Virus record (IMG/VR): IMGVR_UViG_3300045988_094266
DNA from: a virus
DNA length: 64,000 bases
Direction: 5' to 3' (one strand)
A program made the position numbers and the translations under genes. Position 1 is the stretch's first letter, and every line of letters starts with the position of its first letter. Below the pieces are notes generated by a model. The model saw only the letters and a program-made list of their open reading frames with translations, made no database searches and was not told where the DNA came from. Of this stretch, positions 2,755-57,389 are shown in pieces.

Positions 2755-3380
2755 TCAATCAAGAGCAATATCATCAAAGATTACAGGGATTTTTTCCTTG
2801 ACTTTATTAAGTGCAATAATTGCTACTTCTCTCATTTGCGGATGGGCGGCTGGAGAGCAGCGAAGCTTGAAGAAATGCCGCCATTCCCGCAAATCCGCAG
2901 TCATAACTACTTCTGTTTTTAAACTATTAGGTAGAACTGCTCTTGCTTCTTGGGGTGTGCATCCAGTAGAGAGCATATTAAAATATTCCTCTTCCGCATT
3001 TTGGCAGGCATTATACCAATGATCGTAAGCTGGATTGCTCTTGATTAAGAAACAGGGTTCAATAACAGTAATTTCATTTCCGAACCCGTCTTTCGAATAA
3101 TTGCAATATCTTGTAGATTCTTGACAATAGGCAGCCAATCTATGACGAACAATTTCATGGCTAACACCTCTATCGCAAATAAATTTAAGAGTAAAAGAGC
3201 AATGCTCGAGGACTGCTTCATGTCCTCTTTTAATAATATTCTAAACAAATTTTACAGCACTATCTTCTGTAATCTTATCTTCAGATTTATAACAAACTCT
3301 ACCGCACTGTTCAATTCGTTTAAGAATTATCTCACCGTCAATAGGTGTAATCAGTTCAACATCTGGCTTAATAATTTTCA
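2755..3380 (-). CDS. thyX: FAD-dependent thymidylate synthase ThyX with one in-frame TAG
   Basis: Reading through TAG at ~3241-3243 gives MKIIKPDVELITPIDGEIILKRIEQCGRVCYKSEDKITEDSAVKFV[TAG]NIIKRGHEAVLEHCSFTLKFICDRGVSHEIVRHRLAAYCQESTRYCNYSK. The ThyX RHRx7S...QESTRY signature spans the TAG. RBS GAGGAA upstream; TGA stop. Confidence 0.75.
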
Positions 3381-3382
3381 TA

Positions 3383-3658
3383 TTATTCCTCACTTAAATT
3401 ATATCCAATAAGTTCCATACAAGGATTTATTAATCGCAATAATATCTCTACTTCATCAATTACGAATTTTTCCTTCAAATCTCTACTTTTTAGAAATTCA
3501 GAATAACTAATACAATTTAGTCCAATAATTCCATATTGTTCTGCTTTAATTCTCATTGAGCGTGGATTGCTACATACAAAAATAGCATCATTATCTTTAG
3601 CATATTGCATTAGTTGATAGGTTTTTCCAGTACATCTGTTACCAATAATTCTAAACAT
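3383..3658 (-). CDS. Small P-loop (GNRCTGKT) protein
   Basis: 91-aa ORF whose stop abuts the ThyX start. Confidence 0.3.
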   Translation of the reverse strand: MFRIIGNRCTGKTYQLMQYAKDNDAIFVCSNPRSMRIKAEQYGIIGLNCISYSEFLKSRDLKEKFVIDEVEILLRLINPCMELIGYNLSEE

Positions 3659-4569
3659 TAAGATCCTCCGCGAGTAGTATTTAAACCAAAATCTTTCGTT
3701 TTATAAAACTCAATCCAATAAGTTTCTCTCTCATTTAAATTTTCCCTTGAAACTTCTTCTAAAATCTCAAAGGTAAAATTATGAACTCCAGATTTCTACA
3801 TGGTAGAATATAGTTTATTGGTTGCTTTTCCGTAAGTTAAAGCAGATTTAATATGTTGTCTAAAACGTTCTTTTATATCAACTGACTATCCTATATAGGA
3901 TTTCCCAGTGGTCAAATCAGTTATCCTATAAATCCCACAATATTTAATTGCTTTTGGGAATAACCGAGCTGTTAATATATCATAAGCTGGTTTATAATAC
4001 ACTTCCCATATTAACTTATCTATGCTTTCTTTTTTGACAAATCTAGGTTGCAACTCACGCAATAATGTAATATCATTTATATCAATTTCATCAAGAGCTA
4101 AACGATAGTAATCTTGATTAGAGTCAATCTCTTCCTATCTTAGTTGAGCCTAAATATAAGCAAGTTGTTTAGCTTGTAAATCCGCTAATTTACTGGATTC
4201 GATAGAAATTTTATTTGATAAATCTTGACTTTTAGCATCAAAAGTCATAGTAAGCTCATTTTCTTTTTCTTCATAGGATTTTAAAAGTGCGGAAATGCGA
4301 ATCTAGTATGCCTCATCAGCTTGCTTTTGTGCATTTTCCCGCATTTCTTCCTAAGATTTTACTAGAGAAGAAAGAATTTCATTTTCAGAGTATATATTTT
4401 CTTTTATATTAGATAATACTTCTCTATTATGTTTTATTTCCTATTCTATCTCGGAGTTTTTCCTCTAATTATCTATATTAACTTCAATTATTTGATGCTC
4501 TTGTTTCTTGAGATAATAGATATAAATTATTAACCCGATTATAGTAATTAATAATAACCCTATAATCAT
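3659..4569 (-). CDS. GIY-YIG nuclease-domain protein (N-terminal TM helix and coiled coil, C-terminal GIY-YIG) with eight in-frame TAG codons
   Basis: Continuous frame once TAG is read as sense. C-terminus GIYRITDLTTGKSYIG[TAG]SVDIKERFRQH...ETYWIEFYKT is a GIY-YIG motif. TAA stop overlaps the next ATG (TAATG). No standard-code ORF of 60 aa or more exists in this 0.9-kb region. Confidence 0.55.
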
Positions 4570-4580
4570 ATTTAAAAAAT

Positions 4581-4605
4581 TCGGGGAGAGTTAACCTCTC
4601 CCCGA
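4581..4605 (-). terminator. Intrinsic terminator (tcggggagag-ttaa-cctctccccga followed by a T-run on the minus strand)
   Basis: Inverted repeat immediately after the 4612..4887 gene. Confidence 0.5.
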
Positions 4606-54559: not shown

Positions 54560-55035
54560 TAGATAAAGTGAGTATTTTATTTAACGCATATCAGCCTCAC
54601 TCACGCCTTACCTGTGCAATTATTTATAGTTACTGTCGATAACTTATATAAATATTATATAATATTTATTTTTATTTTTCAAATAATCAATAAGGAGTAG
54701 GTGTTCCATAAAGACCAGTAATATCAATATCATTACATAGATCTCTAGTCACACAAGTTTCAAGTTCTGCCTGAGAAATAATTTCTTCCTCCGCTAGAGG
54801 TTCATCACTCTCGATAGTAGCAAGGATAGTGAAAGAAACTGCATAAACATATTTACTCATAAACTCAAAACTTCCTTTCCTTAATTTTCTATATATATTA
54901 TATAATAATTTTTTTTATTTTTCAAGGAGGCGTAAGTTCTAGAAAATATTTCTCTTACGCTTCCCTTTTAGTAAGGAAGTTTGTACTATTATTAAACTTT
55001 ATATTAAATATCTTAATTACCCATACCCAAAATTT

Positions 55036-55344
55036 TTAATCAGTAATTCCCAACTTGGCTTTAAGTTCCTCAATCTTAGCTTTATCCTCTGGAGCCAACT
55101 CAGTTGGAGTAAAACTATTTGCGGATGGAGTATCAGAACTTGATGTAGAGAGCGTACTATCTCCTCCGCCCGCGATCGGTGTCTTAGGCATTGTAAGTGA
55201 TACAGCAATCTGAACAACTTCTCCACTCGCTCCATCTTTTACTGAAATGTAAATCTTTTTATCCGAAACAAAAGAACCTTCAAATGTTGAAAGAATTGTC
55301 TTTGTAATTAGGTCTTTCGCTGCGTCTCCTCGTCTAACTGCCAT
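55036..55344 (-). CDS. Hypothetical protein
   Basis: 102-aa ORF immediately downstream of 55344..56648. Confidence 0.25.
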   Translation of the reverse strand: MAVRRGDAAKDLITKTILSTFEGSFVSDKKIYISVKDGASGEVVQIAVSLTMPKTPIAGGGDSTLSTSSSDTPSANSFTPTELAPEDKAKIEELKAKLGITD

Positions 55345-56648
55345 TATTCATCGTCCTCCTCGATTAATCTATCCTCTTGTTTCATTAGATTATGGCAAGT
55401 CTTACAATACGGCCTACCATCCATCCAATAAATTTTATCTTCATCATATATTCTACGATAACAACTATTACAAGTCAAGAAGAAATCTTCATCTGCCTCT
55501 TTCTCTGATATGCAGAAATTACATAAAAATGAATCTTCTCTATTTATATGTTCTGTTCCACAACAGGGGCAAATTGGTCTTTCACCAATTTTAATTTGAA
55601 AAACATCATTAAAATATAGTTCTTCCACATATTTATTTTGATCTAAATGCTTTGTATAATCCTCATACTTTCCATTATTCACTGATATAATCGGTGCGTA
55701 TGTACTAGAAATAACTAAATCGGAATATCCTAAATAATCACTCATATCAATTACATCTCTCGTATCATGAATACGTCCACCTGCATTTATTTGATTATAT
55801 ATAAGTTGCTCACTACCCCATTGAGTTTGGATTACTTTAAATCCATAATCAAGAGGAAGAGACATATCAAATTTAATCAATTTAAGTAACATATTATGTA
55901 CACAAGCGAGTAAATCTCTTGATTCATATGGATATTGTCTATTATAATAAATATTTCTGATACCATCTGTATGGACTAACATTCTCCATTTTTTGCTATT
56001 CCATTTCATTCCTAATGGAAGACATTTTAGATGCTCTTGTTTACCATTAGATAAATAAGCAACAATAGTTGTTTTATCTACTAAATAACTAAGATTTCCA
56101 CTTCTATAATCTCCATCAAGAGACTGACATGACCACCAATTTTCATTGTTTTCTGAAATAGTTAAGAAATCAAGAGGATGAATAGAAAGATATAAATATC
56201 CTTCTATTTTATTTTCTTGCATATATCTTGAAGCAGTATCTTGTGCCCATCTAACAATCTCTTGACTATTAATAAATCGCTTAAAAGATTTGGATAATTT
56301 AGAACCTAGTGGAATATTAAAAGAAGGATATGGTAATAAAACTCTGTTATCAAAAAATCCTCCTTTATTATCTCTCAAAAATAATTCGAGATCAGTAGTT
56401 AAGATTCCGTTTTCATCAAGAGCTTGAATAAACTCTTCAAATCTTTTATTCTTCTGCTCTTCTGTCAAAAGAATTTTAATTGGTTCCTTGCTTCTTAATA
56501 TCAATTCTCCGCCAAAAAGATTTATTATATCTTTTTTCGCTTCTGCCCATTGTTCGATTAAATTTTTTGAATCGAGATAAAATGGATAATCTTGAGAATG
56601 AACAAGTACAGATTCAAAATCATTTTGTAACTTCTGTAATTCTATCAT
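55344..56648 (-). CDS. Hypothetical protein with C-terminal zinc-finger clusters
   Basis: 434 aa. C-terminus CPCCGTEH...CNFC...CNSC...CKTCH. Confidence 0.3.
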   Translation of the reverse strand: MIELQKLQNDFESVLVHSQDYPFYLDSKNLIEQWAEAKKDIINLFGGELILRSKEPIKILLTEEQKNKRFEEFIQALDENGILTTDLELFLRDNKGGFFDNRVLLPYPSFNIPLGSKLSKSFKRFINSQEIVRWAQDTASRYMQENKIEGYLYLSIHPLDFLTISENNENWWSCQSLDGDYRSGNLSYLVDKTTIVAYLSNGKQEHLKCLPLGMKWNSKKWRMLVHTDGIRNIYYNRQYPYESRDLLACVHNMLLKLIKFDMSLPLDYGFKVIQTQWGSEQLIYNQINAGGRIHDTRDVIDMSDYLGYSDLVISSTYAPIISVNNGKYEDYTKHLDQNKYVEELYFNDVFQIKIGERPICPCCGTEHINREDSFLCNFCISEKEADEDFFLTCNSCYRRIYDEDKIYWMDGRPYCKTCHNLMKQEDRLIEEDDE

Positions 56649-56669
56649 CTATACATTATATCTCCCATC

Positions 56670-57389
56670 TTATAAACTCCAATCAATCGGTTCTCCACCC
56701 ATAGAAAGCAGTAAATTATTTGCTGTTGAAAACGGTTTACTACCTTTAAACGCAGGAGTTCCTTTACATGGTTTACTTACACTAAAAGGACTTGGATGGG
56801 AAGATAAAATATAAGCCTTCTTAATCAAATTCTCTCTGGCAACTCCAGGTCCATCCCATACCATAGGACTAGAATTTAAATCTTTTAATAAATTCTGAGC
56901 ATTAGCTCCCCATAACATAAAAACAATAGGTTGTGGCAAATGAGTTGCAGCTTTCAACACCGCTGTCGTAAACCTGTTCCATCCCCAATTAACACAGCTA
57001 TTGGCTTGATGTTCATAGACAGTTAAACTTGCATTAAGAAGCAATACTCCTCTTTCTGCCCAAGATGTTAAATCTCCAGACTGCGGAATTGGAATCCCTA
57101 AATCGCTATTAAGCTCGCTAAAAATATTTCTTAAAGATGGTTGAATGGGGCTCCCATCAGAAATAGAAAATGCTAACCCGTTTGCTGCGCCTGGGGTATG
57201 ATACGGGTCTTGTCCTACAATACAAACTTTTACATCTTCTGGATGCGTAAGATTAAGCGCTCTAAAGATTTTATCCTATTCTGGAAATAAAATCTTTCCT
57301 TTAGAGCGCTCTTCTAAAGCATGATTTTCAAGTTGAACACTTAAATCCAGTGCCTCTTGAGGAAGAATTTCCGACCATTTCACTTTAGA
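56670..57389 (-). CDS. ung: Uracil-DNA glycosylase (family 1) with one in-frame TAG
   Basis: MKWSEILPQEALDLS...ILFPE[TAG]DKIFRALN...VGQDPYHTPGAANGLAFS...LLNASLTVYEHQANS...VFMLWG...SSHPSPFS; GQDPYH, LLN and HPSP motifs present; the TAG aligns with a Gln/His/Lys position of UNG. Confidence 0.7.

Follow-up and report, generated by a model that had tools for sequence, protein, structure and literature searches.

How does a phage obtain complete proteins from genes that are interrupted by in-frame TAG codons, and why are these codons frequent in some of its genes and missing from others? The question is raised by a stretch of 64,000 nucleotides from the virus record IMGVR_UViG_3300045988_094266 (in the following, the window), in which conserved enzymes, lysins and tail fibres carry TAG within their reading frames. 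The window is part of the genome of an uncultured tailed gut phage of ~149 kb, of which 64 kb are visible; the host is probably a member of the Clostridia (Oscillospiraceae). It has 36% G+C and nearly all of its genes lie on the minus strand. The explanation that accounts best for it, at a probability of about 0.85, is that the phage uses genetic code 15 with a suppressor tRNA of its own, tRNA(CUA), and rations TAG gene by gene as a safety catch on lysis and late functions. This explanation builds on observations of several kinds, namely the in-frame TAGs, their Gln meaning, the tRNA, the uneven distribution of TAG over the genes, and conservation in relatives. Near-identical contigs of 146-149 kb are present in IMG/VR, ENA and Logan, and in a binned metagenome-assembled genome of Oscillospiraceae, and the public gene calls for them already render TAG as Q.

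TAG is a sense codon in this phage, and TAA and TGA are its sole stops. The curated set comprises 53 genes, all on the minus strand, which were translated with TAG kept as an undefined residue; 18 of them (34%) contain a total of 46 in-frame TAGs, and none contains an in-frame TAA or TGA. Their terminal codons are TAA (40 genes) or TGA (13 genes). On the coding strand, the median number of open codons is 101 behind a TAG 'stop' but 6-8 where the ORF ends in TAA or TGA (p = 4e-4), a difference that is not seen on the non-coding strand. Pfam matches run across the TAGs in ThyX, Phage_lysozyme2, Amidase_2, NAGPA, GIY-YIG, YqeY, AAA and uracil-DNA glycosylase (UDG), and those to Mtd_N and to tail PHROGs do likewise. 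In the tRNA scan, no tRNA with anticodon UUA or UCA is found in the window, and tRNA-Trp has the anticodon CCA.

A preliminary description of the window had named ThyX, UDG, RNA ligase, a GIY-YIG protein (with 8 TAGs), both lysins, the tail fibres and an AAA ATPase as genes interrupted by TAG, and translation and domain matches bear this out. Its statement that TAA and TGA terminate holds equally, with ThyX and the SLH-bearing lysin ending in TGA and the anticodon of tRNA-Trp being the usual one. Some details change: the TAG of ThyX does not fall within the RHR signature, as had been stated, but at residue 51, ~30 residues upstream of that motif; the RNA ligase is indeed a single gene divided by one TAG, but at 25762-25764 and not at 25756-25758; and an RHH protein, said to contain TAG, is not identified among the small TAG-bearing open reading frames (ORFs) that were scanned. 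The proposed comparison of coding density between translation tables 15 and 11 turned out to be non-discriminating, because the genome is tightly packed and coded on one strand: greedy ORF coverage rises from 73.8% under table 11 to 84.1% when TAG is read as sense, but reading TAA as sense instead gives 84.3%, and reading TGA so gives 79.5%. It was replaced by the measurement of open frame after each stop, given above, and by alignments at the codon level.

These results also dispose of the view that the interrupted genes are pseudogenes, or that their TAGs are sequencing or assembly errors, which can be regarded as refuted. TAG is the sole codon to interrupt the genes, and neither TAA nor TGA ever does so; assemblies made independently from other samples show TAG at the same positions, which are also kept in relatives of 97-100% identity; the proteins are conserved over their full length across the TAGs; a dedicated suppressor tRNA is present; and the codon alignments and standard-code lysin homologues described below agree with this. 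What speaks for genuine decay is a single tail-fibre gene that is truly broken in the window. Its two ORFs (40770-41246 and 40084-40740) form one unbroken gene in five near-identical relatives, and the window is without 10 nt (GCTGATAGTT) at ~40845-40850, which shifts the frame; the deletion reflects a genuine disruption or variant, or else a fault of the assembly. The continuous gene in the five relatives, together with the 10-nt deletion, rules out a programmed -1 frameshift, which had been considered for the A_AAT_TTA that lies between the two ORFs.

The amino acid inserted at TAG is, with a high degree of probability, glutamine, delivered by the phage suppressor tRNA. Homologous proteins from databases are of no use here: lysin proteins show Q at nearly all TAG columns, but this evidence is circular because the relatives' own TAGs had been translated as Q, and every relative locus that was fetched fails to match the query protein under the standard table. 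Codons were therefore compared directly in the DNA. Against three syntenic contigs (127-149 kb, 55-71% mean protein identity), the TAGs of the window are aligned with TAG in 21 cases and with CAA or CAG in 32 of the 63 other cases, over a Gln background of 3% of aligned positions. The codon opposite the single TAG is CAA in one of the relatives (L004) both for ThyX and for YqeY, and the RNA ligase orthologue of another (L006) is an unbroken ORF of 434 aa.

The strongest alignments come from the endolysin, for which 80 homologues were collected from bacterial genome assemblies, mostly of Oscillospiraceae and other Clostridia, cultured isolates included. Gln, encoded as CAA or CAG, occupies the TAG columns of the 77 homologues that have no in-frame TAG in 43 of 43 cases at column 40, 39 of 44 at column 146, 42 of 48 at column 225 and 42 of 49 at column 274; column 139 is also mostly Gln in the standard-code homologues, and the remaining four of the nine TAG columns are variable. 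The expectation that the TAGs of ThyX, UDG and lysin align with conserved Gln positions is thus borne out at four of the nine lysin columns, but not at the single TAGs of the other two proteins, which fall at variable positions in solved structures and yield little information by themselves: the residue aligned with the ThyX TAG in structures from the Protein Data Bank is R, and the UDG column contains Q, S, V, R and A.

The same homologue set bears on the idea that the host itself reads TAG as Gln, so that the phage would only match the code of its host. Such matching is known for the code-25 phages of Absconditabacteria (Borges et al., 10.1101/2021.08.26.457843), a precedent that lends no direct support in this instance. 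Since in-frame TAG is lacking in 77 of the 80 lysin homologues that come closest among bacteria (those of Oscillospiraceae and other Clostridia), and since the phage uses TAG in only about a third of its genes and has a suppressor tRNA of its own, a recoded host is almost certainly not the answer.

The suppressor tRNA, which the preliminary description had not mentioned, folds into a canonical cloverleaf; its CCA end is encoded, its acceptor stem opens with a U1.U72 mismatch and is followed by G73, the D-loop has 8 nt and the anticodon stem 5 bp. Among all tRNAs of the window, its acceptor stem is nearest to that of the phage tRNA-Gln(UUG), with which it agrees at 12 of 15 positions, both having G73 (identity over the whole tRNA is uninformative, as the lengths differ, and the acceptor stems were compared instead). 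In nine IMG/VR contigs the anticodon arm of tRNA(CUA) is identical, and the T-stem and acceptor stem show compensatory changes; the unpaired 1:72 positions, followed by G73, are retained even in a distant relative, though the flanking sequence diverges. In Escherichia coli, glutaminylation by GlnRS is favoured by U35, by G73 and by a 1:72 pair that is weak or open, and amber suppressors readily accept Gln. To judge from its sequence, the phage tRNA(CUA) looks derived from a tRNA-Gln, and host enzymes presumably load it with Gln. Together with two adjacent tRNA-Gln genes, it gives the phage one decoder each for CAG, CAA and TAG.

That TAG should stand for another amino acid (pyrrolysine, Trp, Tyr, Lys or Glu) is very unlikely in view of this tRNA and of the lysin columns, at which Gln prevails wherever they are conserved (43 of 43, 42 of 48, 42 of 49). 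ARAGORN does label the gene 'tRNA-Pyl', but gives this label to any CUA anticodon, and K or E stands opposite some of the TAG columns; the ordinary cloverleaf, with its 8-nt D-loop and 5-bp anticodon stem, is not of pylT shape, however, the acceptor stem is tRNA-Gln-like, and homologues of pylS and pylBCD are not found among the window ORFs scanned. The assignment to genetic code 15, with TAG as Gln, therefore stands as first proposed, upheld by CAA and CAG in relatives, by the standard-code lysin homologues and by tRNA(CUA).

The use of TAG relative to CAA and CAG is uneven across genes (G = 125.6, permutation p = 2e-4). TAG accounts for 39-67% of the Gln-type codons in the lysin, the GIY-YIG gene, an HNH gene and two of the tail-fibre genes, for 14-23% in the other tail-fibre genes, and for 6-23% in ThyX, UDG, YqeY, RNA ligase, AAA ATPase and the NAGPA-SPOR gene; its share is 0 in the topoisomerase II subunits, DNA ligase, PhoH, nicotinate phosphoribosyltransferase (NAPRTase), NAD synthase, Thg1, an MVP-like protein and a DUF2828 protein. 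The same ranking of gene classes is seen in the three relatives (5-16 TAGs in the GIY-YIG gene, 4-7 in the lysin, 1-4 in the small gene after the lysin). The concentration of TAG in lysis, structural and endonuclease genes, as originally described, is thus real and recurs in relatives, but the split between early and late genes is graded rather than absolute, because single TAGs also occur in ThyX, UDG, RNA ligase and YqeY. Likewise, the large early and replication proteins are free of TAG as stated, but do not all fall within the given range of 400-800 aa, the DNA ligase having 368 aa.

The choice between the two standard Gln codons is itself bimodal. Counted as CAA/CAG, it is 0/16 in a Band7 protein, 0/16 in RNA ligase and 2/9 in the DUF2828 protein, as compared to 21/3 in topoisomerase II-A and 13/0 in GyrB (see, for example, 16292-17188 and 24961-26232 versus 6612-8978). 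TAG-rich genes fall into the CAA-preferring class. This bimodality may reflect recent acquisition or expression class.

The arrangement of promoters and terminators follows the distribution of TAG in part. About 20 intergenic regions contain a closely similar promoter of sigma-70 type (read by eye), with an extended -10 element (TG-n-TATAAT) and a conserved leader; the module proceeds from TG-n-TATAAT through an AT-rich stretch to GAAAGTTAAGGAAAGGAAGTAAA and then ATG, as at 62847-62935, 22468-22550 and 37700-37740. The genes directly behind these promoters have no TAG or, in three cases, one, and no gene with at least two TAGs is found in this position. The lysis cassette (NAGPA-SPOR, lysin and holin-like gene) has no consensus early-type promoter and is flanked by two terminator hairpins, of which one (14093-14120) lies just before the start of the NAGPA-SPOR gene and the other (11432-11470) follows the holin-like gene; a hairpin also immediately precedes the start of the GIY-YIG gene. 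The suppressor tRNA has a perfect consensus promoter ~440 nt upstream, separated from it by a small ORF but by no predicted terminator on that strand, and this promoter would drive its transcription.

From this a mechanism can be proposed, in which the suppressor tRNA, charged with Gln by host enzymes, would decode TAG, and TAG-rich proteins would be completed only after the tRNA has built up enough to outcompete release factor 1 (RF1) of the host. The outcome would be a translational safety catch on lysis and on other late or toxic functions, added to transcriptional control. As a part of the overall explanation, this regulatory role in lysis, late and toxic genes is plausible, its odds being slightly better than even.

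Several observations weigh against this explanation. About half of the aligned codons that are not TAG encode K, E, R, N and other residues instead of Gln, and several single TAGs are uninformative; at variable positions, non-Gln residues are the expected outcome. The incorporation of Gln is deduced from sequence comparison. The partition between early and late genes leaks, in that UDG and two ORFs of 153 and 67 aa, with one TAG each, sit directly behind early-type promoters. PhoH has no TAG in the window and 6 in one relative (L004), and recoding status that changes this fast argues against a strictly function-bound rule. Release factor 2 (RF2), GlnRS or another synthetase, or any other code-change gene, is not seen among the scanned ORFs of the window, which covers 64 of ~149 kb and contains several small ORFs outside the scan. 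Finally, the perfect sigma-70 promoter suggests early rather than late expression of the suppressor tRNA. Should the tRNA be transcribed early by host RNA polymerase, as is possible, any timing would have to come from its accumulation; a switch based on accumulation has also been suggested by Kienbeck et al. (PMC10879173).

Some of these points would fit a different role, in which TAG is decoded only in part and acts as a leaky stop that lowers the dose of toxic proteins throughout infection, without a temporal switch. With its consensus sigma-70 promoter upstream, the suppressor tRNA may be produced as soon as infection begins; single TAGs do occur in early-looking genes; and an RF2 or anti-RF1 function is not seen in the window ORFs scanned. 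With nine TAGs in the lysin and up to 16 in a GIY-YIG orthologue, however, almost no full-length product would be obtained unless each suppression event were efficient, and the TAG-rich genes are nevertheless conserved at full length, which leaves a pure attenuator unlikely. An extension of the safety-catch explanation has about the same low probability: in a hitherto undescribed Herelleviridae-like clade of Oscillospiraceae phages, TAG density could be a fast-evolving timer set gene by gene and backed by a transfer-messenger RNA (tmRNA) and YqeY of the phage, of which the former could rescue ribosomes that run past host TAG stops and the latter could aid the glutaminylation of the suppressor tRNA.

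Table 1. Coordinates of the TAG-bearing genes, TAG-free blocks, and RNA and promoter elements discussed in the text.
Feature	Coordinates	Strand	Properties
ThyX	2755..3393	-	1 TAG at 3241-3243 (residue 51); stop TGA; Pfam match to residues 25-204
GIY-YIG protein	3658..4569	-	N-terminal membrane helix, long coiled coil, C-terminal GIY-YIG; 8 TAGs
TAG-free replication block	5218..10880	-	DNA ligase (368 aa), small ORF, topoisomerase II A and B
Small holin-like protein	11472..11807	-	hydrophobic, holin-like segments; 0 TAGs; 4-nt overlap with lysin stop
Endolysin	11804..13213	-	Phage_lysozyme2, Amidase_2, weak SLH; 469 aa; 9 TAGs; stop TGA
Second cell-wall enzyme (NAGPA-SPOR)	13216..14070	-	NAGPA phosphodiester glycosidase and SPOR; 2 TAGs
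YqeY (GatB C-terminal-like)	22916..23365	-	1 TAG at 23267-23269
RNA ligase	24961..26232	-	single gene; 1 TAG at 25762-25764
TAG-free MVP-like and DUF2828/DUF7788 proteins	30771..35147	-	813 aa and 507 aa; small ORF between
HNH/homing-endonuclease-like gene	35184..36095	-	4 TAGs, the last immediately before the TAA stop
Suppressor tRNA, anticodon CUA	37196..37270	-	decodes TAG; ARAGORN; Rfam tRNA 60.2 bits
Consensus sigma-70-type promoter	37708..37736	-	TTGACA, 17 nt, TG-n-TATAAT; 12/12 match
Tail-fibre module	38721..43178	-	Mtd_N-type paralogues
Tail-fibre paralogue	38721-40058	-	3 TAGs
Tail-fibre gene	40084-41246	-	5 TAGs (4+1); split by 10-nt deletion
Tail-fibre paralogue	41264-42325	-	2 TAGs
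Tail-fibre paralogue	42346-42912	-	5 TAGs
Tail-fibre paralogue	42921-43178	-	2 TAGs
AAA ATPase	43571..44692	-	phrog_2376; 1 TAG counted from Met-20 start
tRNA-Tyr(GUA)	44725-44809	-	weak; Rfam 32.4 bits
tRNA-Lys(CUU)	44998-45116	-	42-nt predicted insertion or intron in anticodon loop
tRNA-Gln(CUG) and tRNA-Gln(UUG)	45286..45437	-	adjacent pair; tRNA scan
tmRNA	47672-47987	-	inside tRNA array; 114.6 bits; tag peptide DNDYFENYLAA
Twister-P1 ribozyme-like element	51465-51522	-	Rfam 51.7 bits, E ~1e-9 to 1e-10; gathering score 67.2 not reached
UDG	56670..57383	-	1 TAG at 57276-57278

The GIY-YIG gene is recoded more heavily than any other gene of this phage family, with 5-16 TAGs in relatives. It had been taken for a homing endonuclease, a view that probably does not hold: the gene occupies the same syntenic position in three relatives (L001, L004 and L006), the protein starts with a membrane helix, and NUMOD is not detected in it. 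Its fixed position in relatives and the N-terminal membrane anchor of its product make a mobile homing gene improbable, and a role in superinfection exclusion or in late DNA degradation may be speculated upon. Membership in the SNIPE family (PMC13190303) was considered and rejected, since the combination of membrane anchor and GIY-YIG domain is all that the two have in common and DUF4041 is not detected. The HNH gene, which adjoins a tRNA-Cys/Leu/Sup cluster, varies among genomes that otherwise have 97-100% identity (L008, L011, L013 and L015), being present, missing or swapped for a version of 33% identity, and this pattern fits a mobile homing element.

Within the lysis cassette, the NAGPA-SPOR gene lies between PhoH and the lysin and has no counterpart in L001, L004 and L006, which suggests that it was inserted in this lineage only. 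The small protein encoded after the lysin would act as the holin, judging from its position and hydrophobic segments; it is free of TAG in the window, and its orthologues in relatives contain 1-4. The MVP-like protein of the second TAG-free block consists of Vault repeats and an MVP shoulder, and its phage-collection matches are limited to the records LR756500-LR756503 (uncultured, 462-735 kb, 39-44% identity).

ARAGORN finds 31 tRNA genes in the window in its default scan, and a re-scan adds two that the default misses, a tRNA-Lys(CUU) with a predicted insertion or intron and a weak tRNA-Tyr(GUA). The tmRNA located inside the array might, speculatively, rescue ribosomes that fail to halt at host TAG stops once the code has switched. 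The twister-P1 candidate, which retains the conserved core nucleotides, is separated by 5 nt from the tRNA-Ser(GCU) downstream of it (51367-51459). Beside the suppressor tRNA, no Rfam match to an HDV-like or theta ribozyme is found, a weak negative as Rfam may hold no theta model; 3' of this tRNA there is a ribosome-binding site and the start of an ORF, 20 nt past the CCA end. Genes for RNA and tRNA repair are scattered over 16292-29742 of the minus strand, comprising Thg1 (tRNA-His guanylyltransferase), RNA ligase, an RlaP-like nucleotidyltransferase, two metallophosphoesterases, an RNase T-like exonuclease and YqeY; the same interval of this strand contains the NAD-salvage genes NAPRTase and NAD synthase and a PRPP-synthetase-like gene.

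Among known systems, the closest parallels are the gut-phage clades Lak, crAss-like, Jade, Sapphire, Garnet and Amethyst, for which Borges et al. (10.1101/2021.08.26.457843) describe reassignment of TAG to Gln. These phages carry suppressor tRNAs and rely on host synthetases; clade means of recoded genes range from 26 to 71%, with lysis, tail and endonuclease genes preferentially recoded, for which the authors propose a delay of late and lytic proteins. The phage described here resembles them in the alignment of TAG with Gln, the tRNA(CUA), the partial recoding (34% of genes) with a bias for lysis, tail and endonuclease genes, and the variable or standard coding of replication genes; its presumed host, to judge from the lysin homologues, may use the standard code as well. 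It differs from them in that no RF2/synthetase 'code-change module' is seen in the window, and in that the top recoded gene encodes a membrane-anchored GIY-YIG nuclease and not a spanin or an intron endonuclease. The recoded fraction, 34% as compared to the Sapphire mean of 26%, is not diagnostic of clade. For crAss-like phages, Peters et al. 2022 (PMC9523058) report metaproteomic evidence that code 15 is in use; these phages share the reassignment, but belong to the order Crassvirales and have Bacteroidota as hosts.

A phage collection searched with regions of the window returned no close described phage among the matches listed. The best of these are Firmicutes phages, at 35-45% protein identity, and the huge-phage records LR756500-LR756503, at 39-44%. 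The closest cultured relatives among the matches listed (the best 15 of larger record lists) are SPO1-like Herelleviridae of Bacillus such as BCP8-2 and Deep Blue, on the basis of one protein, the AAA ATPase, at 45% identity. The phage also agrees with the Herelleviridae in its general traits, as these have genomes of ~150 kb, Firmicutes hosts, and many tRNAs and homing endonucleases. Cultured members are, to our knowledge, annotated in the standard code. No terminase, the protein on which the clade phylogeny of Borges et al. is built, was found within the 64-kb window.

Another recoded phage, phAss-1 of the proposed Phassvirus (Babkin et al. 2023, PMC10607447), is a human-gut phage of 136 kb with dozens of tRNAs, among them tRNA-Sup(CTA) genes, and with TAG in 28% of its ORFs; it has no dedicated synthetase, and its TAGs align with conserved Gln. 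It has two to three suppressor genes and a tape measure of siphovirus type, whereas the window contains one suppressor and shows Herelleviridae-like affinities, and phAss-1 (OQ749652) is not among the phage-collection matches listed for the regions searched, two of these lists giving the best 15 of 1,803 and of 385 records. The maturation of phage suppressor tRNAs may further involve a ribozyme, as in the theta (HDV-like) system of Kienbeck et al. 2024 (PMC10879173). Like that system, the present one comprises a recoded gut phage with a suppressor tRNA, and a candidate self-cleaving ribozyme beside a tRNA of the same array; unlike in that system, the candidate is a twister-P1 located 5' of tRNA-Ser(GCU) and not 3' of the suppressor.

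The reassignment of TAG to Gln, the suppressor tRNA and the bias for lysis genes are all already published, and no new question is opened by their occurrence here. For the annotation of this phage, and of the many related ones in gut metagenomes, they have a direct consequence, as table 11 fragments the lysin, tail fibres and nucleases, and table 15 is needed in its place. With the window, the known TAG-recoded phages gain a lineage of Firmicutes type with Herelleviridae-like affinities, and the fact that lysis, tail and nuclease genes are again the preferred targets in this lineage supports the idea that recoding serves as a guard on late or toxic functions.

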